Part shown: one piece after another, positions 9,677-43,960 of the stretch
Numbering within the stretch: the first letter of the stretch is position 1
Layout of the letters: each line of letters starts with the position of its first letter
Assembly: GCA_036381335.1 (NCBI GenBank)
Contig: DASVCZ010000010.1
Span: forward strand, 1-45,174
From: Patescibacteria group bacterium
GTDB taxonomy: Bacteria; Patescibacteriota; Microgenomatia; UBA1400; PJMF01
DNA: 45,174 nt
Direction: 5' to 3'
Notes under the pieces: model-generated
Seen by the model: the letters and a program-made list of their open reading frames with translations, nothing else
Told to the model about the DNA's origin: nothing
Databases searched by the model: none
Program-made: the position numbers and the translations under genes

Positions 9677-9712
9677 AGTCTACAGGCCTTTGGTGGCAAG
9701 AAGGTGGCAAAA
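9677..9712 (-). promoter_or_regulatory. Conserved 20-mer plus -10-like TAGACT (copy 2 of 5), immediately upstream of the LTD gene
   Basis: The minus strand reads TTTTGCCACCTTCTTGCCAC (9712-9693), then a 10-nt gap, then TAGACT (9682-9677), then CGGGGT, then ATG at 9670. Confidence 0.6.
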
Positions 9713-9743
9713 CGGGAGCAAAATGAAAATTGCTACAAGAGAC

Positions 9744-19115: not shown

Positions 19116-19195
19116 AATCCAGAACTAATTAAAGCATCATTTGCCTAATCACTTCAAGTGGAAAGTAACAGAAAATTGTGTAATTTTTGCTCGCC

Positions 19196-19231
19196 TTTTG
19201 CCACCTTCTTGCCACCATTGTTGCTTATACT
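19196..19231 (+). promoter_or_regulatory. Conserved 20-mer plus -10-like TATACT (copy 3 of 5), upstream of the KilA-N gene
   Basis: TTTTGCCACCTTCTTGCCAC is at 19196-19215 and TATACT at 19226-19231. The ATG is at 19259, preceded by GAAAGG. Confidence 0.6.
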
Positions 19232-35460: not shown

Positions 35461-35496
35461 AGTGTAACAGCCAATGGTGGCAAGAAGGTGGCAAAA
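35461..35496 (-). promoter_or_regulatory. Conserved 20-mer plus -10-like TACACT (copy 4 of 5), upstream of recA
   Basis: The minus strand reads TTTTGCCACCTTCTTGCCAC (35496-35477), then a 10-nt gap, then TACACT (35466-35461). The recA ATG is about 120 nt downstream. Confidence 0.6.
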
Positions 35497-35541
35497 CGGG
35501 AGCAGTTTTTTGCTAGCTATCTCCTTGGTTTCGTGAAGATA

Positions 35542-36021: not shown

Positions 36022-36174
36022 ATGTTTCAAAGAAAAGACAATTTTAGCGATTTGATGACTGACTTAACGGACGACTCTGATTCTTATGATTCTGATTCGG
36101 ACTCAGATTATCAGGCTGATGAGGAAGTAGATACTTCTGATGGTGACTCTGTAACTTTAGATTTAAACGATTAG
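36022..36174 (+). CDS. Possible 50-aa, extremely acidic Asp/Ser-rich peptide (not in the ORF track because it is under 60 aa)
   Basis: The ORF runs from ATG 36022 to TAG 36172-36174 and translates to MFQRKDNFSDLMTDLTDDSDSYDSDSDSDYQADEEVDTSDGDSVTLDLND. It is convergent with the nuclease gene, and an AT-rich -10-like TATTAT lies upstream. The RBS is weak. Confidence 0.3.
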   Translation: MFQRKDNFSDLMTDLTDDSDSYDSDSDSDYQADEEVDTSDGDSVTLDLND

Positions 36175-36198: not shown

Positions 36199-37095
36199 TT
36201 AATCAGTGACTTCGACTCGGGCTAGAGTAGTATCGTCTCTTTTTGTTAGTGAAAAAGTTACTTTTTTATCTTGATATGCAAACGTTGTTTCTGCATGTTT
36301 TGCAATTACGTTTCTGTTATCTGCTGCGTCAGAAAGATATGTAGTATCAAAAACAGCTTCTTCCTGAATCCAGAAACAATGAACTATTGCTTCTATCTTG
36401 TCTATTCGAGCATACTCATTCCCAATCTTAGCGAAAAAACAATCATGAGGATTTGTAAAATTTAGATTAAGTCCCTTTACTACTTTTTCACCTTCTTCCA
36501 CTGAGTCATATACACTCTGAGGAATGTGTTTAGGCAAAAGTTGACCTACAGTTCCCCATAGACTATGGTCATTTTTATAAAGTTTTACTTCATTTATGTT
36601 TTTTTCCTTGGTTTCCTCACGAAACTGTTCTAGTAGATTTTCATGTTGGACATTAAGTAAAACCAAAACTTTTTCAGCTTCAACATTTAAATGTTGAATA
36701 ACCATTACTTTACTCAAAATTACTTGCTCTAAATCATCTGGCAAATGAAGTAAGTTTAATGTTTTTATACCATGCTTTTCAGCCTTTTTAATTGCCCCCT
36801 CACTGAATCCTGTTGAAGAAACAGCAATCACTTTATCAACCACAAGGCTAGCCCTTTTTTGTATTAACTGCTCTATCCAAGTTACATCTTCGTTACCTTC
36901 CCTATCTCTGCACTCTATTGCTATCACGAAGGGATGTGGCTGATTTAAATACCTCACCACAACATCAACCTCACGGTTTTCACCAGTGTCTACATCTTTA
37001 AGGAAACCAGGTGACTCTACCTTTACATCGTCAGTGTTGATAGCACTTTCAATTCTTTTAATTAGTTTTTCAAGATTTCTTCCTTTTCTCGGCAT
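36199..37095 (-). CDS. Mrr-like / PD-(D/E)xK restriction-endonuclease-fold protein with an unknown C-terminal domain
   Basis: The N-terminal 110 aa or so read GRNLEKLIKRIE...REVDVVVRY...FVIAIECRDRE...DKVIAVSSTGFSEGAIKKAEKHGI. This follows the Mrr_cat-type D...(E/Q)xK(R) layout. The start codon lies 2 nt after the HEPN gene stop. Confidence 0.6.
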   Translation of the reverse strand: MPRKGRNLEKLIKRIESAINTDDVKVESPGFLKDVDTGENREVDVVVRYLNQPHPFVIAIECRDREGNEDVTWIEQLIQKRASLVVDKVIAVSSTGFSEGAIKKAEKHGIKTLNLLHLPDDLEQVILSKVMVIQHLNVEAEKVLVLLNVQHENLLEQFREETKEKNINEVKLYKNDHSLWGTVGQLLPKHIPQSVYDSVEEGEKVVKGLNLNFTNPHDCFFAKIGNEYARIDKIEAIVHCFWIQEEAVFDTTYLSDAADNRNVIAKHAETTFAYQDKKVTFSLTKRDDTTLARVEVTD

Positions 37096-37097
37096 AT

Positions 37098-37736
37098 TTA
37101 TGGGTATTCAACTCCAATAACATTTAATAAAAGCTCAGTATTTAATTTACTAGAATCTCTGAGTTGATTAACAGTAATTTCGACAATTTCAGGTAGTCTT
37201 GCGAGTAAGGCATCACAATTAACGACCCAATTTCTCCCATCATTGTCACTATCCTCAAACACTTTGTGCTGTTTGGCGTAATCTAGACTTTCTTGTACTG
37301 AATTCTGAGTTCCTACATCAAAGTTAAAAGTAATTACTTGTTTTCCAGGTTGAACTGTCAAACGATGGGCTAACCAATTTCTAAAACCATTCCAAATTAG
37401 TTGCAAAGCATCACCACTGTCTGGTAATCCTAAATCTAATCCTGATTTTTGAATATTTTTCATAAAGTACAAAAATGATGCTGTTTCATCTTTACAAGAA
37501 CCATCATCTTCAAACTTATCTGGGCGAACAGTGCAGTAGTGAACCTTAGCTAGTAAATTCAGGCAGCTAAATAAGCTTAAAGCAATTACTATGTTACCTC
37601 CACCGATATTCTCTTCTTTGTGTTGCAAACTGTTGTTTCTTATATACACGAATGCTTTTAAATCGTTGAAAACTCCACCAACTCTGTCTTCAATATCATC
37701 AATACATTTTTCAACTACTAGTTTCTGATTTTCCAT
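37098..37736 (-). CDS. HEPN-domain protein (putative RNase) with an R-x4-H motif
   Basis: WNGFRNWLAHRL contains RNWLAH, which fits R-x4-H with Asn at +1, as in many HEPN RNases. The context appears helical. The protein is 212 aa and sits between the orphan large gene and the nuclease gene. Confidence 0.55.
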   Translation of the reverse strand: MENQKLVVEKCIDDIEDRVGGVFNDLKAFVYIRNNSLQHKEENIGGGNIVIALSLFSCLNLLAKVHYCTVRPDKFEDDGSCKDETASFLYFMKNIQKSGLDLGLPDSGDALQLIWNGFRNWLAHRLTVQPGKQVITFNFDVGTQNSVQESLDYAKQHKVFEDSDNDGRNWVVNCDALLARLPEIVEITVNQLRDSSKLNTELLLNVIGVEYP

Positions 37737-37761
37737 ATATTATACTTTCACATTGTCAAGA

Positions 37762-40158
37762 TTATTTTTTATTCTCATGATAAAAACCCACTATATTTTC
37801 ATCTGGTACAAATTCTATTTTTTCACCAGCTTGCATTATTACTAATTTGCTAAGATATGCTTTTTGAGCATCTCTATCACCCTTAGTTTGAAGCCATTCT
37901 GATGGATTTTCAACCCATTTTTCGACAATACCTGGGTTAGTTGCTAGGTCTTTTACTTTAATTCTTAGGTGCTGGAATAAGTAGTCTTCTGCATCTTCTT
38001 CAATTAAAGGATAGTGCTGAACAAATGTTCCTATTTTTCTAAAATCAAAAACAGCAAAGTAGGACGGTTTGCCCTCAATCTGGTAATTGTAAACTTTTAC
38101 TTTCTTTTCTCCCACAATAAACCAACCTTGTAAGTGAGGTTCTTTTTCTTCACCAGTTGGTTCAGTCCAATAAGGTTTAAACTTTTCTTGTTGCTCGAAG
38201 TAGTCAAACATTAAGTCTGTCGAGGCAAATATTACAGTACTTTTTGTAATTCTTATCCTTTCAAGCGCGGTTTCAATGCTAGAATCCTCTGTCACCTCAA
38301 GACTTTTGACAATATCATTCAAGATTACAGAATCTTCACCTTCACCAATGCCTCTACCATAACTTTTACCCCAATCACCGAAATCGACATGCCAATCGTC
38401 AAAGAATATTTCACGCCGCTCCAATTTGTCGTAGCCAATTAACGGTTTTTTAATTATTTTTTTATCTTGAACTCTGTCTTCAAACCGACCAAAAGATTTA
38501 AATTGTTTCCTTAGTTGAGCTGAGTACTTATAACCATCAAATACTTGCTGTTTAAACTCATCTATCCTCTTTTGGCTTAAGTCCTGCTGTTCTTTAAGCT
38601 GCTCAATTTTATCCTCAGCACTTTCCTTGATTTTTTCTAAAAATGGAATTAGTTTTTTATTTACCAACTCTTCACCTGCTTGCTTATCTTCCGCCAAGTC
38701 AAGCTCTTTTAGAATGCCCCAATCAGTAAAGGATTTTGTATTTGCAATTAAACCTTCGAGGAGGAATTTAACATCTGCTAGTTTTTGAGGTTCATTGAAT
38801 GGAATTACATATTCTTCGATGACAGGATACTTTGCTTCGCTAGAGTTTTGTGCGGTGGTAGTGGGATTTGCTTCAGCGTAAGGTTTTTCAGGTTTTAAAT
38901 ACTTTAACAACAGAAGTAAGAAGTATTTATCTTTGTATAAACCAGAATCATGGTGGTCATCCCAAAAAAATGGAAACCTATCAGAAAGTGTTTGAAAGAA
39001 AAACAAAACTGTCTCATTTAATGAAGTAGGATAAATATCATTACCGCCATAAGAAGCTCCTGCATCAGGTGGTTGTTTATACGACCAAATTTGTTTTATA
39101 AAAGATGCTTTTCCTTTGTATACAGCCCAAGCGCCTGCCAAAAACATGACACGCCTTAAGGTGTTATTTGCAAAGCATACTAATACTGCATTCTCTACGT
39201 CATCTTTGACTTTCTTAGCCTTTCTCTTATTTTGTGGATTTAGTTTTGGTCTAACTGCATCGATGTATTCTTGAAAGTCTTTTTTCCATTTTTCGAGCTG
39301 TTCTTGTGTAAGCACTGCTTTACCTTTATCAACAAGTTTTCTTTCCAATTTTGAAATGGAAATTTCATCAGCAAGTTTTCGGTATTCGTCTCGGTCTTGA
39401 GAAAGTAGTAAATCAGAATAATCCCACAGTTTGTCAACTGTGTATGTTGGAACATGAACACCATCGACTATATGACCTATTAACTCTTTAAAAATAACAG
39501 TTTCATTCTCATTTATTAGGTGTTTAATGTTCTCAAGTAAGTATGTGTTAAACAACTCTAAGTATTCCTCATAGAGAAAGCCACCTTTTCTTTTTCTGCC
39601 ATAGTCTTTAAATACAACATGTGTATACCACTCATAAGTGGCGGCTGAACTAGCAGAACTTTTCATCTTCAGCGATTCTCTGGAAAATTTCCATAGCTTT
39701 TTTAAAACTTCTTTGACCAACAATTCTGCTTGCTCCATTTCAGAGACTTTTTCGAGGAAAAAAGCTAATTGATAGCTCGCATGTCTAGTGACTTCTTCGT
39801 TTTCTGTCTTTAGGGATGTTTCAAAAACCCTGATAATCTGTTTGAGAATAAAACTGAAAGAAATCAGATATTTTTCTGGATAGAAACCTAGCCTGAATTG
39901 AGCATCATCTTTATTTTTTTGGAGTAGTGCCCAATATTCTTCGGCAAGCATTAGCTTGTCAAACTTGTCGGGGTCTTTATCTCTTAAATCTAGTAAAGAT
40001 TGAAATAGTTTCCCAATTTTTTGCAAGTCTGGGATAACTTCAGAGTTCCTTTTGTTTTTGGTAAGGAAAACTAGAATATCCCCAAGTCCTTCCAGCGACT
40101 CAATAAAATCTTTTTGCTGTTTTAGTGTTTTTTCAGTCGAAGATTTTTTCTGCTTCAT
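37762..40158 (-). CDS. Large (798 aa from ATG 40158; 811 aa from 40197) orphan protein of unknown function
   Basis: It is a long uninterrupted AT-rich ORF with no Walker A, helicase, methylase, RT or nuclease signature visible. There are K/E-rich helical stretches and a WDDHHDSG cluster. It overlaps the upstream membrane-protein gene by 26 nt. Confidence 0.7.
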   Translation of the reverse strand: MKQKKSSTEKTLKQQKDFIESLEGLGDILVFLTKNKRNSEVIPDLQKIGKLFQSLLDLRDKDPDKFDKLMLAEEYWALLQKNKDDAQFRLGFYPEKYLISFSFILKQIIRVFETSLKTENEEVTRHASYQLAFFLEKVSEMEQAELLVKEVLKKLWKFSRESLKMKSSASSAATYEWYTHVVFKDYGRKRKGGFLYEEYLELFNTYLLENIKHLINENETVIFKELIGHIVDGVHVPTYTVDKLWDYSDLLLSQDRDEYRKLADEISISKLERKLVDKGKAVLTQEQLEKWKKDFQEYIDAVRPKLNPQNKRKAKKVKDDVENAVLVCFANNTLRRVMFLAGAWAVYKGKASFIKQIWSYKQPPDAGASYGGNDIYPTSLNETVLFFFQTLSDRFPFFWDDHHDSGLYKDKYFLLLLLKYLKPEKPYAEANPTTTAQNSSEAKYPVIEEYVIPFNEPQKLADVKFLLEGLIANTKSFTDWGILKELDLAEDKQAGEELVNKKLIPFLEKIKESAEDKIEQLKEQQDLSQKRIDEFKQQVFDGYKYSAQLRKQFKSFGRFEDRVQDKKIIKKPLIGYDKLERREIFFDDWHVDFGDWGKSYGRGIGEGEDSVILNDIVKSLEVTEDSSIETALERIRITKSTVIFASTDLMFDYFEQQEKFKPYWTEPTGEEKEPHLQGWFIVGEKKVKVYNYQIEGKPSYFAVFDFRKIGTFVQHYPLIEEDAEDYLFQHLRIKVKDLATNPGIVEKWVENPSEWLQTKGDRDAQKAYLSKLVIMQAGEKIEFVPDENIVGFYHENKK

Positions 40159-40684
40159 TAAACAGTTGCTCCTTAACAAATGATGGACTACGAACATATT
40201 GAAGAATTAAATTAAAAAACAGGGCAAGTAGAACCATTGAGGCTATTGATAACAAAAAAGAGAATCCAGTTAACAAAAACGACTCAACTTTAAAGAAACT
40301 CAAAAATAGTAAATAAGTGATGTTTAAAAGCAATATGATTGCAAGCGCTCTAAAAAAAGGTTCTTTAATAAACCTGTTCATGATAATCTCAGATTTATAT
40401 CGGTCAGAAATTCTCGAAACTATATCTACTGACAAAGGTAGTAGCAGTGCGAGGATTGCAGTTTGAACTGTTAAGGCATCAGAAATAAAGCCACTGGCTT
40501 TTTCTGGTAGAGACAAATATGAAGGGGTGTCAGCACTTTCCGTTTTTTCAGTACCACTATTTCTATTTTCAATACTAACCTCAGATGTGTTACTGATAAT
40601 TACTCCATTCGAGCCGCCCGCATAAACAGGGCTAACCAGAAACAAAAAAACGGTTAGGATGATAGCAATTGATGTATTTCGCAT
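40133..40684 (-). CDS. Polytopic membrane protein (signal/TM, S/T/N/E-rich exposed segment, then 3 TM)
   Basis: MRNTSIAIILTVFLFLVSPVYAGG is followed by three hydrophobic helices. This is the first cargo gene after the XRE regulator. Confidence 0.6.
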   Translation of the reverse strand: MRNTSIAIILTVFLFLVSPVYAGGSNGVIISNTSEVSIENRNSGTEKTESADTPSYLSLPEKASGFISDALTVQTAILALLLPLSVDIVSRISDRYKSEIIMNRFIKEPFFRALAIILLLNITYLLFLSFFKVESFLLTGFSFLLSIASMVLLALFFNLILQYVRSPSFVKEQLFNEAEKIFD

Positions 40685-40736
40685 TACCTTCGGATTTTAT
40701 ATTGGTAACGCCAAATTATCAAATTGAAGTGGAGAA

Positions 40737-40952
40737 TCAATCAATATCAAAGAGGTCTTTTAGTTTTACCCCTAATGCTTTCGCTATTTTATAGGCAGTT
40801 TTTATAGAAATGTTTCTACCTTGCTCAATATCCCAAAAGTATGCTCTATGTAATCCAGCTTCTTCAGCAAGCTTTTCTTGAGTCAGCCCTTTTTCTTTGC
40901 GTAAGTACTCTATTCGTTCACCAACTCGTTTGTAAAAAAAATTGTAGTTCAT
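40737..40952 (-). CDS. XRE-family helix-turn-helix transcriptional regulator
   Basis: The 71-aa protein contains RIEYLRKEKGLTQEKLAEEAGLHRAYFWDIEQGRNISIKTAYKIAKALGV, the classic HTH_3 pattern. Confidence 0.88.
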   Translation of the reverse strand: MNYNFFYKRVGERIEYLRKEKGLTQEKLAEEAGLHRAYFWDIEQGRNISIKTAYKIAKALGVKLKDLFDID

Positions 40953-41042: not shown

Positions 41043-41468
41043 GTGAGTATAAACTCATTCAGAAAGGCAAAAATGTTCTTTAATAAGGATAAAAAAGAAG
41101 TAAACTTACTGTATGAAACTAGCTACATGGGTTCTAACATTAAAGTGTTTCCGAATAAGCTAGTTTTCAAAATGATGGGTATTGAACAATCAATTCCGAT
41201 TGGTCAAATTGCAAGTGTAGAACTAGGCATGCCAATGCTATGGCAAATAGTTGTAGAAACAACAGGAGGCAAGAAGTATAAAATACCCACTCGCAAAAAG
41301 AAGGAAGTGCAACAAGCTATCTATGACGCACAAGCAAGTGTAGGTGCTTCTCAAGGTAGTAGTTCCAGCTTGGCTGATGAACTTGAAAAGTTAAACGATT
41401 TGGTTGAAAAAGGAGTCTTAACAAAAGAAGAATTTGATAAAAAGAAAAAAGAACTACTTAACTCATAA
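41043..41468 (+). CDS. PH-like N-terminal domain + C-terminal SHOCT-domain protein
   Basis: The C-terminal LADELEKLNDLVEKGVLTKEEFDKKKKELL is a SHOCT motif. The track start is a GTG, and ATG M11 is an alternative. Confidence 0.6.
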   Translation: MSINSFRKAKMFFNKDKKEVNLLYETSYMGSNIKVFPNKLVFKMMGIEQSIPIGQIASVELGMPMLWQIVVETTGGKKYKIPTRKKKEVQQAIYDAQASVGASQGSSSSLADELEKLNDLVEKGVLTKEEFDKKKKELLNS

Positions 41469-41512: not shown

Positions 41513-41932
41513 ATGGGCTTTATGAGGTCATGTAATTACACAAAAGAACTGCTTAATGAGCTGTGTACACATATCGGTGCAGGGCTATCGAATAAAGATG
41601 CAGCTCTGTTAGCTGGCATTTCTGAATCAACTTTTTACCTCTGGCAATCAGATAAAGCAAATAATCCTCTCACAGTTGATGAGAAATTGGAGTTATTGGA
41701 GTCTATAAAAAAGGCAAGACTTGCTAGAAAGAAAAAGTTTATTGGCATAATTGAGAAAGCAGCCGAAACACACTGGCAAGCTGCAGCCTGGTATCTTGAA
41801 CGTGCTTATTTTGAAGAGTTTGGAAAAAAACCGACTGGATACCTGCCGCCCACTAATCAACCTGAAAAAAAGGTCTTTATTCTCCCAAGTAATGGTCGAG
41901 AGAAATTTAACGAACATGCAGTCACAGAATGA
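41513..41932 (+). CDS. Phage-type HTH DNA-binding protein (terminase-small-subunit-like; possible recombination directionality factor)
   Basis: AALLAGISESTFYLWQ is HTH-like. THWQAAAWYLERAYFEEFGKK resembles the (N)WQAAAWWLERR.PE.(Y/F)G motif of TerS-like phage proteins. It overlaps the recombinase start by 17 nt. Confidence 0.5.
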   Translation: MGFMRSCNYTKELLNELCTHIGAGLSNKDAALLAGISESTFYLWQSDKANNPLTVDEKLELLESIKKARLARKKKFIGIIEKAAETHWQAAAWYLERAYFEEFGKKPTGYLPPTNQPEKKVFILPSNGREKFNEHAVTE

Positions 41933-43628
41933 AAAACCAGCAGTTACTATTGAAGACCTCACAGATTTTTTCACAGAGCTTAATGCCTCACCTTACGACA
42001 AGATAGATGAAGCTGACTACAGATATGTGATTTACGCGAGAAAATCCACAAGTGGTGAAGAGCGGCAAGAACGTTCCTTAGCCGACCAAATTGCTGAATG
42101 TAACGCCTATGCACAACGACATGAGTTAAAGGTGGTTGGAGAGCCAATTCAAGAAGCTGAGAGCGCTAAAGAACCAGGAACTAGACCCAAATTTAGAAAA
42201 ATACTTGATGATATAAATGCTGGAAAGTATGAAGGCATTCTTTGCTGGCATCCAGATAGGTTAGCAAGAAACATGAAAGAAGCTGGAGAAATAATTGACT
42301 TGCTTGATAAAAAAATAGTTAAAAACCTTCATTTCGTTTCAATGGCTTTTACTAATGATACAGCTGGTATTACCACCTTAGGAATTTCATTTGTTTTATC
42401 GAAACAGTACTCGGACTCATTAAGTACTAATGTTAAACGCGGTAATCTAAGGAGTGTCATGCAAGGTAAGTGGCTTCATTCTGCTAAGCATGGATATTTA
42501 AAAGATAGAAATCAATTACTAAGACCAGACGGTAATAACTTTCATATCATAAAAGAAGCGTGGATGCTTAGAAACTCAGGCAAAACTCTTCAGTCTATTC
42601 AGAACTACATCAATAGTAATAATTTCACAAAGTCATCTAAAGATAAGCGAGGCAACTTACAACATAAACAATACCTAATGGACAAAAAACGCCTTTCGGA
42701 AATGTTTAGAGACCCCATTTATGCTGGTGTTATGGTTCATGGAAATGATGTGGTGAACCTAAATGAAATCTACGATTTTGAACCAATGGTATCTGCAGAA
42801 GAGTTTGCACATATTAACAAAACTACTGATTTGCATGGTTATCTTAAAAGGAAAGCGAGAGCAAGAAATCCTCAAAAAGTTAAAGCTAATTTGTTGCTTG
42901 GTAAGGTAATTTGTCATAGCTGTAGAGAACCACTATATGCAGGTATCACTGTTAAGAAGAAAAAAGATGGTACTAGAAAGAGTTACTTTTATTATCGATG
43001 TGAAACTTACGATTGTGTGGATAGGAATAAATCTACCAGAGCAAAAGTGGTAATGAACTTTGTTTACGACTTTTTAGATAAACACTCTTTTGATACGAAA
43101 GTAACTTACCAGCATTACTTAGATGAGATGAAGCTAGTGCAAACAAAAAAGCTAGCTGAGCTAAAAAGCACTAAGTCAGCTCTCCTGAATAAAAAACGAC
43201 ACTTAAAAAAGCAAACTGAAGAAATAAGGAAATTCTTATTAACTGAAAAAGAGGAACTAATTAAAAATCAATATCGGCATGACCTTATTGATAAATCGGC
43301 AAAGCTTGATGAAGTTGAAGAGCAACTGGTAATAACTGACAAGGAGTTAGCTAAAAACAAAGTAGGAGTTCACAGCTATAAAAGATTCCTCGAACTTACA
43401 AGTAAATTGCCAAAAGTCCTCAAGAAAACACGTTCTTTGGAGAAAAAAGACTATATTGTCGGAAAAATCTTCTCGAACTTTGTCGTTGATAGAAAAAAAG
43501 TATTGGATTATCAATTAGAAGAGCCATTTGCCACATTTGTGGAAAAGGGACTTTTTTTCCAAGTGTCGGAGAGACAGGACTCGAACCTGCGACCTCGCGC
43601 ACCCCATGCGCGCGTTCTAGCCATCTGA
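41916..43628 (+). CDS. Large serine recombinase (integrase); the last 21 codons or so are antisense to tRNA-Pro
   Basis: The resolvase-type catalytic region is YVIYARKSTSGEERQERSLADQ. There is a recombinase domain, the zinc-ribbon cysteines CHSCREPLYAG...YYRCETYDC, and a long coiled coil. I chose ATG 41916 (MQSQNEKP...) over the track start 41751, which overlaps the previous gene. Confidence 0.85.
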   Translation: MQSQNEKPAVTIEDLTDFFTELNASPYDKIDEADYRYVIYARKSTSGEERQERSLADQIAECNAYAQRHELKVVGEPIQEAESAKEPGTRPKFRKILDDINAGKYEGILCWHPDRLARNMKEAGEIIDLLDKKIVKNLHFVSMAFTNDTAGITTLGISFVLSKQYSDSLSTNVKRGNLRSVMQGKWLHSAKHGYLKDRNQLLRPDGNNFHIIKEAWMLRNSGKTLQSIQNYINSNNFTKSSKDKRGNLQHKQYLMDKKRLSEMFRDPIYAGVMVHGNDVVNLNEIYDFEPMVSAEEFAHINKTTDLHGYLKRKARARNPQKVKANLLLGKVICHSCREPLYAGITVKKKKDGTRKSYFYYRCETYDCVDRNKSTRAKVVMNFVYDFLDKHSFDTKVTYQHYLDEMKLVQTKKLAELKSTKSALLNKKRHLKKQTEEIRKFLLTEKEELIKNQYRHDLIDKSAKLDEVEEQLVITDKELAKNKVGVHSYKRFLELTSKLPKVLKKTRSLEKKDYIVGKIFSNFVVDRKKVLDYQLEEPFATFVEKGLFFQVSERQDSNLRPRAPHARVLAI

Positions 43629-43639
43629 ACTACTCTCCG
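43566..43639 (-). tRNA. tRNA-Pro (anticodon GGG), CCA not encoded
   Basis: The minus strand reads CGGAGAG-TA-GTTC-AGATGGCTA-GAAC-G-CGCGC-ATGGGGT-GCGCG-AGGTC-GCAGG-TTCGAGT-CCTGT-CTCTCCG-A. This is a full cloverleaf with the C1-G72 and A73 typical of bacterial tRNA-Pro. The AUGGGGU loop matches E. coli proL as I recall it. Confidence 0.9.
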
Positions 43640-43697
43640 TAAGGACTTTATTATACCGTTACTCTTCGCAAAGTCGAGCAGAGTGATTTTACTCCCA

Positions 43698-43733
43698 TTT
43701 TGCCACCTTCTTGCCACTTTCCACTAGTATGCT
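43698..43733 (+). promoter_or_regulatory. Conserved 20-mer plus -10-like TATGCT (copy 5 of 5), upstream of tRNA-like ncRNA-2
   Basis: TTTTGCCACCTTCTTGCCAC is at 43698-43717 and TATGCT at 43728-43733. Confidence 0.6.
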
Positions 43734-43739
43734 TGAGAA

Positions 43740-43944
43740 AGAGGTGGGCTCGGCAGGCGCTAGGCAAGTCTGATAAACTAGGCCTACCGGGTTCAATTCC
43801 CGGCGAGTCCACCTCTCTCTCGGATGAATCATATTGACAATAAAAGCGTATAGGCTACAATAAATCTACAGTTTATCAGACTTGCATTACCTAGCGCCTG
43901 TTAGGCAATTCAAATACCATCCTTAAGGGGTGGTTTTTTGTTTT
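43740..43944 (+). ncRNA. Unclassified structured RNA with a tRNA-Ala-like acceptor/T-arm core (paralog 2)
   Basis: The core is 43746-43813. GGGCTCG (43746-43752) pairs with CGAGTCC (43804-43810), giving G3.U70. The T-arm is CCGGG-TTCAATT-CCCGG (43787-43803), followed by A43811 and CC. The internal hairpin is AGGC-G-CTAG/CTAG-GCCT with the 14-nt loop GCAAGTCTGATAAA. Segment 43754-43778 is complementary (11 + 14 bp, with a 5-nt bulge) to 43871-43900. A terminator follows. Confidence 0.6.
43917..43944 (+). terminator. Intrinsic terminator of ncRNA-2 (possibly bidirectional with the convergent GT4 gene)
   Basis: CCATCC-TTAAG-GGGTGG hairpin followed by TTTTTTGTTTT. Confidence 0.7.
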
Positions 43945-43960
43945 CAGATCAGAGATGTTT

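Follow-up and report, generated by a model that had tools for sequence, protein, structure and literature searches.

The region studied here, on contig DASVCZ010000010.1 of a Patescibacteria group bacterium, carries five genes between positions 36,199 and 40,952 of the window, that is, of the whole analyzed stretch of 45,174 nucleotides (nt) whose coordinates are used throughout. It is probably the cargo of an integrative island of ~7.5 kb and, as such, would comprise three independent, individually mobile modules, each a candidate for anti-phage defense, rather than one five-gene system. Module A is a pair formed by a membrane protein and a protein of 798 amino acids (aa), module B is a 212-aa helical protein, and module C is a 298-aa Mrr-like nuclease. 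The backbone of the island, in all probability, consists of a large serine recombinase, a helix-turn-helix (HTH) protein resembling the terminase small subunit (TerS), a SHOCT protein and an XRE regulator, with tRNA-Pro adjoining the point of insertion. The membrane protein and its 798-aa partner are the sole conserved multi-gene unit of the locus and, within this defense-island mosaic, a new candidate system.

Gene layout and co-occurrence

The five genes, all identified as open reading frames (ORFs), are arranged as follows.

40737..40952, minus strand: XRE/Cro-type HTH regulator, 71 aa (Pfam HTH_3)
40133..40684, minus strand: polytopic membrane protein, 183 aa, gene 1 of module A (ORF)
37762..40158, minus strand: 798-aa protein, gene 2 of module A (ORF; alternative ATG at 40197)
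37098..37736, minus strand: 212-aa helical protein, module B (ORF; RNWLAH motif)
36199..37095, minus strand: 298-aa Mrr-like nuclease, module C (Pfam Mrr_cat)

The genes are co-directional, and the spacings of 52, −26 (an overlap), 25 and 2 nt agree with those of an earlier, sequence-only reading of this DNA. They are not chance ORFs, because full-length homologs exist for the 798-aa (50), 212-aa (21–22) and 298-aa (408) proteins. The sequence-only reading had combined all five into one candidate new defense or abortive-infection (Abi) system composed of an XRE regulator, a membrane component, a large sensor, a HEPN ribonuclease (RNase) and a PD-(D/E)xK deoxyribonuclease. Such a system would fit the co-directional packing, with gaps of 2 to 52 nt and one overlap, the common low GC content, and the failure to find a strong intrinsic terminator between the five genes. 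The distribution of the genes across genomes argues against it. One genome per species was scanned for the pair, which yielded 20 loci from at least 10 phyla, and the neighbors within 7 kb were screened by BLAST. A 212-aa or Mrr-like homolog was present within this distance in 0 of the 20 loci, and all-against-all clustering of the neighbors in these loci revealed no third conserved companion. Likewise, none of the other examined loci with a 212-aa homolog contains either the pair or an Mrr-like gene. The closest Mrr-like homolog (69% identity) has a different neighbor, following an unrelated 210-aa gene, and the family sizes lie far apart, at about 50 for the 798-aa protein, 22 to 162 for the 212-aa protein and more than 400 for the nuclease. 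Across loci, only the pairing of the membrane and 798-aa proteins recurs. The co-occurrence data largely refute the one-system reading, which we regard as very improbable.

The cargo also corresponds to no named defense system in PADLOC-DB v2.0.0, in line with the sequence-only reading. The four cargo proteins produced no meaningful match there at E ≤ 1; the sole entry is Cas11a (12.7 bits, E = 0.029) for the 212-aa protein.

Conservation and genomic contexts of the pair

Wherever the available DNA extends upstream of it, every full-length 798-aa homolog has a membrane protein homolog immediately upstream or fused to it. This arrangement is found in 17 of the 20 loci and recurs in the further loci inspected. 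In one other of the 20 the upstream membrane gene is present and the contig ends within the large gene, and two loci contain shorter forms of the large protein that start near query residue 235–250. In Levybacteria, Thermodesulfobacteria and Cylindrospermum, a membrane protein of ~150–185 aa either precedes the large protein with a ~23-nt overlap or is fused to it in a polypeptide of ~1000 aa. Fused forms occur in Cylindrospermum, Anabaena, Trichormus, Richelia and Brachyspira, and on a Pseudanabaena plasmid. The pair is patchily distributed across the Candidate Phyla Radiation (CPR), Thermodesulfobacteriota, Spirochaetota (Brachyspira), Gammaproteobacteria, Alphaproteobacteria, Bacteroidota, Clostridia, Cyanobacteria, Actinomycetota and Zixibacteria.

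In the unfused loci, the large gene always lies in the +1 frame relative to the membrane gene, with an overlap of 20–26 nt, and an in-frame ATG is located inside the overlap in most loci. Ordinary translational coupling of the two genes is the simpler reading of this overlap. A programmed frameshift joining them was considered and rejected, as no conserved slippery site was seen in 14 junctions. The membrane protein exhibits a signal-peptide-like N-terminus and, as read from the alignment, a conserved core of three hydrophobic helices. The core motif is FLSD...PLS.EIISRISERYNS, in which Asp69 and Pro83 are invariant and Ser68, Ser90, Arg95 and Tyr96 are nearly so. Because the C-terminal tail of the membrane protein runs into the large protein in the fused forms, this tail and the large protein are presumably cytoplasmic.

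Neither protein of the pair matches any entry in Pfam, NCBIfam, PADLOC or PHROGs. A profile search of PDB sequences with the 798-aa protein returned noise only, and 37 members of its family showed nothing meaningful against Pfam. The description of the large protein as an orphan is thus borne out at the sequence level. No relatives of the 798-aa protein were detected in 50,697 phage genomes or in IMG/VR.

The surroundings of the pair are of the defense type, in agreement with the sequence-only reading: its relatives lie amid restriction-modification, toxin-antitoxin and Abi-type genes. A Pfam scan of 103 neighboring genes, made up of the three closest to the pair in either direction at the 20 loci, returned as top families NTP_transf_2 (4), Eco57I (3), N6_Mtase (3), AAA_15/AAA_21 (3), HEPN (2), Resolvase (2) and ResIII (2). 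The AAA_15/AAA_21 neighbors match the PtuA, AriA and AbiL models in PADLOC. Other neighbors include type ISP proteins, an EcoRV endonuclease, HNH and ScoMcrA_N proteins, pairs of HEPN and nucleotidyltransferase genes, PIN/Phd/YoeB genes and serine recombinases. In CPR genomes, the pair is accompanied by serine-recombinase islands, XRE genes and an EcoRV restriction-modification system. It is associated with an Eco57I-family methylase and with DUF433/DUF5615 and Phd/PIN pairs in loci L003 and L012, with a type ISP enzyme, an HNH protein and a ScoMcrA_N protein in L044, with YafQ and YoeB/Phd toxin-antitoxin genes in Cylindrospermum, and with PIN genes on the Pseudanabaena plasmid, where the fused gene is annotated as a "hypothetical protein" by the Prokaryotic Genome Annotation Pipeline (PGAP). 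These neighborhoods carry the typical signature of defense islands.

The clearest defense-island contexts of the pair are L010 and L044. On the Harrisonbacteria contig L010 (243–5240), an XRE gene, an EcoRV endonuclease gene and a 360-aa gene are followed directly by the pair, all in one direction. In L044 (2206–10534), the pair is flanked by a ScoMcrA_N protein and, at its opposite end, by a type ISP restriction enzyme together with an HNH protein.

Predicted structure of the 798-aa protein

The 798-aa protein is well conserved along its full length, and the strongest block, WxYKQPPD...H402, spans residues 355–420. An AlphaFold2 model built from 37 sequences reached a predicted local distance difference test (pLDDT) score of 87 and a predicted template modeling (pTM) score of 0.78. 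In this model, residues 1 to ~550 form an all-helical α-solenoid. Residues ~556–798 adopt an α/β domain, with pLDDT values mostly of 85–95, that comprises a short hairpin, a 24-residue helix, a mixed sheet with short helices and a long C-terminal strand. Foldseek searches against the PDB matched the N-terminal part to designed and natural helical repeats. The C-terminal domain was matched to the HK97 prohead (3qpr_A; probability 1.0, template modeling (TM) score 0.42), to the capsid of a capsid-forming phage-inducible chromosomal island (cf-PICI; 9gyi_B; probability 1.0, TM-score 0.43, root-mean-square deviation 5.9 over 260 columns) and to an encapsulin (7lij; probability 0.97). Against predicted viral structures, at least 10 major capsid or head proteins were retrieved, with probabilities of 0.96–1.0 and TM-scores of 0.3–0.5. 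The model therefore points to a likely HK97 capsid-like fold of the C-terminal domain.

Possible functions of the pair

Beside the observed architecture, conservation and genomic contexts of the pair, we infer a possible mechanism. The membrane protein would anchor the 798-aa protein at the inner membrane, where the α-solenoid might serve as a protein-binding sensor. The capsid-like domain could mimic a phage capsid protein or engage capsid-assembly factors. Phages would thereby be excluded or the infection aborted, and the membrane partner, which may execute membrane damage, could mediate this outcome.

A more specific proposal is that the pair is an immune or anti-mobile-element module, in which a cell-encoded HK97-fold domain, held at the membrane behind an α-solenoid, acts as a capsid mimic. 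We advance this only as a speculative idea, and two versions of it are conceivable. In the first, the domain would be a poison or decoy subunit that disturbs the assembly of the phage procapsid. In the second, the domain would act on the solenoid sensor as a built-in pseudo-ligand and hold this sensor in the off state; phage capsid or scaffold proteins would displace the domain and thereby trigger the membrane partner. Either version, if true, would be the first bacterial defense built from an exapted capsid protein.

The HK97-like fold also bears on a different explanation, in which module A has no immune role. It would then supply a capsid-derived structural protein that belongs, as a remnant or in working order, to a mobile element or an unrecognized virus-like entity, or else it would be a cellular membrane-associated scaffold or encapsulin-like assembly, and modules B and C would be addiction or stabilization genes of the island. 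Besides the fold itself, the long helical N-terminal region recalls the scaffold (delta) domains that certain capsid proteins carry as fusions. Pairs in CPR genomes ride serine-recombinase islands that also carry a TerS-like gene, and some copies reside amid housekeeping genes. Other features of the pair speak against this explanation. Neither a portal, a terminase large subunit, a protease nor an encapsulin cargo protein is conserved beside the pair among the neighbors in the 20 loci, and the phage and IMG/VR collections searched above hold no relatives. In addition, neither capsids nor encapsulins are characterized by an obligate membrane partner, be it paired or fused, and restriction-modification, toxin-antitoxin and Abi genes are frequent in the vicinity. 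On balance, we consider a non-immune role improbable.

The 212-aa HEPN-like protein

The 21–22 close homologs of the 212-aa protein are all about 210 aa in length, and a search of 1.84 billion representative proteins found 162 relatives. None was found in IMG/VR. The sequence-only reading had assigned this protein to HEPN on the basis of RNWLAH, and R-N-x3-H is the classic HEPN signature. The motif part of this assignment stands. Arg119 and His124 of RNWLAH are invariant in 22 close homologs, and among 131 distant relatives only Gly47, Arg119 and His124 are invariant, while Asp25, Gly45, Gly46, Asn48, Trp115 and Leu122 are nearly so. The family is thus marked by two motifs, GGGN and W..RNxLxH. 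In the AlphaFold2 model (pLDDT 80), the protein is mostly a helical bundle, with the RNxLxH motif at the end of the helix formed by residues 108–125.

The fold part of the assignment is plausible. Foldseek retrieved the HEPN toxins 7bxo_H, 6m6w_D, 7ae6_A and 1jog_A only at E > 1, with probabilities ≤ 0.13 and TM-scores of 0.32–0.36. The protein has no match in Pfam, including its HEPN profiles, in NCBIfam, PADLOC or PHROGs, or among PDB sequences. When the 131 relatives were scanned against Pfam, only two gave a HEPN match, both marginal, one to HEPN_LA2681 (E = 0.014) and one to HEPN_RiboL-PSP (E = 0.024). Alignments of the family with hhalign to an AbiU2 HEPN protein and to an RNYSLH-bearing neighbor in locus L030 were both negative, each against a single-sequence target and therefore of low power. 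Since the motif speaks for a HEPN protein and the profile and fold searches do not confirm it, we regard the protein as a candidate RNase, HEPN-like in character, whose family has not been described; membership in HEPN proper seems somewhat more probable than its opposite. By itself, the protein might act in an Abi-like, single-gene manner by cleaving RNA through its Arg/His site.

Upstream of the 212-aa homolog in locus L006 (4011–4955) lies a gene for a protein with DUF5677 and HTH_17 domains. In L030 (1–654), the upstream gene encodes a partial protein that has its own RNYSLH motif and no family match. These two loci hint at arrays of small HEPN-like genes in CPR genomes.

The 298-aa Mrr-like nuclease

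The PD-(D/E)xK assignment of the last gene was upheld by Pfam: residues 33–114 match Mrr_cat (PF04471) with 24.5 bits, above the gathering cut-off of 21. The protein consists of an N-terminal Mrr_cat domain (residues ~1–115) and a variable C-terminal portion of ~180 aa with no family match. Its 408 homologs in bacteria and archaea are full length; several are named restriction endonuclease, and many carry a precomputed PF04471 annotation. In 32 aligned members, Glu9, Arg41, Glu42, Asp44, Glu61-Cys62-Arg63, Arg65, Asp70, Trp73-Ile74-Glu75 and Lys80 are invariant. The position of the lysine in (D/E)xK is occupied by an arginine in all 32 (Glu61-Cys62-Arg63), with the invariant Lys80 nearby, which makes the motif non-canonical. 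This arginine is probably functional, because it is conserved. These residues fit an active nuclease of the PD-(D/E)xK type, and its specificity would reside in the C-terminal domain. It may cleave DNA as a single-gene enzyme in the manner of type IV restriction, the variable C-terminal domain setting the target. The Sideroxydans copy is solitary and lies beside an MqsRA toxin-antitoxin pair.

Counter-evidence and a possible two-gene cassette

Several observations weigh against the interpretation of the region as three independent modules with an immune pair. Many neighbors of the pair are housekeeping genes, and the defense assignment of module A is drawn solely from gene neighborhood. The capsid-like fold is taken from a predicted structure with moderate TM-scores (0.3–0.5), and no capsid or encapsulin profile was matched by 37 full-length members (Pfam) or by 20 C-terminal domains (PHROGs). 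In addition, the 2-nt and 25-nt gaps in the window are compatible with co-transcription, and functional cross-talk is possible. Finally, a gene of variable type often follows the 212-aa gene in tight coupling, so that the 212-aa protein could function with its downstream neighbor, the Mrr-like nuclease included.

This last observation leads to an alternative in which the 212-aa and Mrr-like genes form a two-gene cassette, with the HEPN-like protein as the constant partner (a sensor, a regulator or an antitoxin-like component) of an exchangeable downstream effector. In 7 of 11 contexts, a co-directional variable gene overlaps the 212-aa gene or follows it within 10 nt. The followers are the Mrr-like gene here (2-nt gap), a gene for a 243-aa protein with a single transmembrane segment at three loci, DUF3800 at two and HEPN_AbiU2 at one; a gene for a 138-aa protein is also found downstream. 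Apart from the nuclease, these four kinds of downstream protein bear no relation to one another. An Mrr-like gene follows the 212-aa homolog in none of the other loci examined. Tightly coupled followers are missing in L008, L037 and L038/L039, and two contexts have no close co-directional gene downstream. The Mrr-like family is overwhelmingly solitary, AbiU2 is regarded as a stand-alone Abi protein, and tight packing is usual in CPR genomes and defense islands. We regard a two-gene cassette as unlikely and prefer independent modules B and C.

Island setting

The other features of the island and its border are as follows.

41043..41468, plus strand: SHOCT-domain protein, 141 aa, backbone, divergent from the XRE gene (Pfam SHOCT, 1.7e-8)
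41513..41932, plus strand: HTH protein resembling TerS, 139 aa, backbone (phrog_4102, 1.1e-24)
41751..43628, plus strand: large serine recombinase, longest ORF (Resolvase 2.9e-21, Recombinase, Zn_ribbon_recom; phrog_95 integrase 1.5e-59)
43565..43639, minus strand: tRNA-Pro(ggg) (ARAGORN; Rfam tRNA 58.6 bits)
40694..40722, minus strand: promoter-like site, TTGATA, 17-nt spacer, TAAAAT, between the XRE and membrane protein genes

The region had been described as an AT-rich, recombinase-borne island, and both attributes were verified. The GC content is 0.34–0.36 over 36–43 kb, compared with roughly 0.41–0.49 in the surrounding 10 kb, and the large serine recombinase abuts tRNA-Pro(ggg). Hallmarks of a large serine recombinase element are present, namely the Resolvase, Recombinase and zinc-ribbon domains, the adjacent tRNA as a plausible target and the compositional break. 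Since the 3′ end of the recombinase gene overlaps tRNA-Pro, the element is an integrative island adjoining the tRNA. The tRNA gene is probably both the target of integration and the right-hand boundary of the island. Its overlap with the recombinase ORF, which lies on the opposite strand, takes in the final ~64 nt of that ORF (43565–43628), an arrangement suggesting that the tRNA receives its 3′ part from the element upon integration. The true start of the recombinase is probably an internal ATG near 41895–41919, because the Resolvase domain starts at residue 93. The 139-aa HTH protein may be an excision or packaging factor; in CPR loci elsewhere (L001), serine recombinase genes likewise have small HTH genes of this type ahead of them. 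One possibility is that the island is a phage satellite; another is that the TerS-like protein is an excision factor.

The XRE regulator matches HTH_3 (E = 1.3e-14) and, alone among the five proteins, has clear PADLOC matches, to the generic models for a restriction-modification control protein (2.3e-18) and CapH (2.2e-14). No C-box or inverted repeat was found in the intergenic DNA flanking it. A related island, L009 (GCA_964648715.1, CAZYNM010000004.1, 93–9932), contains the same divergent pair of SHOCT (80% identical) and XRE (49% identical) genes. Its cargo comprises genes for a 789-aa protein, a 603-aa protein with a weak NERD match, a 212-aa homolog, a 242-aa transmembrane protein, a 213-aa protein, a MazG-like protein and a Schlafen-like helicase. 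Because the pair of L009 heads an entirely different cargo, the XRE gene looks like part of the island backbone, and L009 is evidence for cargo exchange on one island type. XRE genes also occur near the membrane and 798-aa pair in other CPR loci at varying positions, heading the EcoRV endonuclease gene just upstream in L010 and lying convergently downstream in L041. Most likely, the XRE protein belongs to the backbone or is a controller-type regulator of the divergent promoter region of the island, and is not a dedicated part of the cargo. The promoter-like site between the XRE and membrane protein genes agrees with the consensus at 10 of 12 positions, and such sites are not more frequent in this region than in shuffled sequence; it is a weak indication that module A could be transcribed by itself.

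Several further elements were noted around the island. A 24-nt motif, GGCAAGAAGGTGGCAAAAYGGGAG, occurs five times in the window, at 1423–1446 (−), 9695–9718 (+), 19190–19213 (−), 35479–35502 (+) and 43692–43715 (−), whereas chance alone would give none. Two instances of GGTGGCAA, 11 nt apart, lie within the motif, and none of its five copies overlaps a listed ORF of at least 150 aa. Two inverted copies flank the island together with tRNA-Pro. A role as terminal repeats was ruled out by the dispersal of the five copies over the window, and because of this dispersal the motif looks like a regulatory or repeat element of the host rather than the island ends. Just outside the island and beside tRNA-Pro, a tRNA-like element with an acceptor stem and a T-arm only is located at 43746–43814 (+). 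It lies within a hairpin of ~28 base pairs, in which 43750–43780 pairs with 43870–43900 (folding z-score −5.6), and a terminator-like stem with a T-run follows the hairpin within 43746–43945 (+). Its identification as a transfer-messenger RNA (tmRNA) was rejected, as the Rfam scores fall below threshold (tmRNA 19 bits, mascRNA 25 bits) and ARAGORN made no call. At the left island edge, a 50-aa, extremely acidic ORF with D/S-rich repeats (DSDSYDSDSDSDYQADEE) occupies 36022–36174 (+), convergent with the Mrr-like gene; it could encode a DNA-mimic-like peptide or be a chance ORF.

Significance

If the pair protects against phages, it would be a widespread system, present in at least 10 phyla including the poorly studied CPR, whose components are without relatives among known defense proteins. 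If the capsid fold holds, bacteria would have recruited the commonest viral structural fold for a cellular, membrane-tethered role, by a route that neither encapsulins nor gene transfer agents have taken. HEPN-like proteins would gain an undescribed clade in the 212-aa family. The locus also calls for caution, since tightly packed co-directional genes on CPR islands can resemble an operon-encoded system and yet be assembled from independent modules. As a mosaic, the locus is nothing unusual; the conserved pair and its predicted capsid fold, if confirmed, would be unexpected to specialists.

Comparison with known systems

The pair was compared with three kinds of known systems. Kiwa (KwaA and KwaB) and similar two-gene, membrane-anchored defense systems share with the pair a gene order in which the gene for a small polytopic membrane protein directly precedes that for its cytoplasmic partner, and both kinds of module occur in defense-island contexts and move horizontally. 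The two differ in their proteins: those of the pair match no PADLOC model, Kiwa included. KwaB is a DUF4868 protein of ~300 aa, whereas the partner in the pair has ~800 aa, combines a solenoid with a capsid-like domain and can be fused to its anchor. The HK97-fold shell proteins, namely the major capsid proteins of phages, the cf-PICI capsid and encapsulins, resemble the pair in the predicted fold of residues ~556–798. Unlike these proteins, the 798-aa protein places a 550-aa solenoid in front of this domain and has an obligate membrane partner, and its family is without a capsid profile match or conserved head-module neighbors and is absent from viral collections. The STAND receptors Avs7, Avs8 and Avs10 bind the HK97-fold capsid protein, which the tetratricopeptide repeat (TPR) sensor of SeAvs7 envelops (PMC12803255). 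The pair shares with them the combination of an α-helical repeat sensor and an HK97 fold. In contrast, it has no match to a nucleoside triphosphatase or effector domain, its capsid-like fold is part of the same polypeptide instead of being a phage ligand, and it is membrane-tethered. A literature search identified no described capsid-fold defense protein with a membrane partner that matches the pair.

The 212-aa protein resembles the HEPN Abi proteins and toxins (AbiU2, AbiD/F, HepT and RnlA types) in being small and helical with an invariant R-N-x-L-x-H on a helix, and its genes are found in defense-type neighborhoods, once beside an AbiU2 gene. It differs from them by the lack of a HEPN Pfam match and by the additional invariant GGGN motif. 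The 298-aa protein shares with Mrr and type IV enzymes an above-threshold Mrr_cat domain and a conserved constellation of acidic and basic residues. In E. coli Mrr, a winged-helix domain precedes the nuclease domain, whereas in the 298-aa protein the nuclease domain is N-terminal and is followed by the variable domain of ~180 aa. The island as a whole is similar to serine-integrase islands and phage satellites in its large serine recombinase by a tRNA, its XRE and TerS-like genes and its exchangeable defense-type cargo, and it differs from them in that genes for replication or capsid redirection were not recognized on it. Taken by module, the Mrr-like gene belongs to a known kind of nuclease, the 212-aa gene represents at most a new HEPN-like family, and the membrane and 798-aa pair is outside every known kind tested here.

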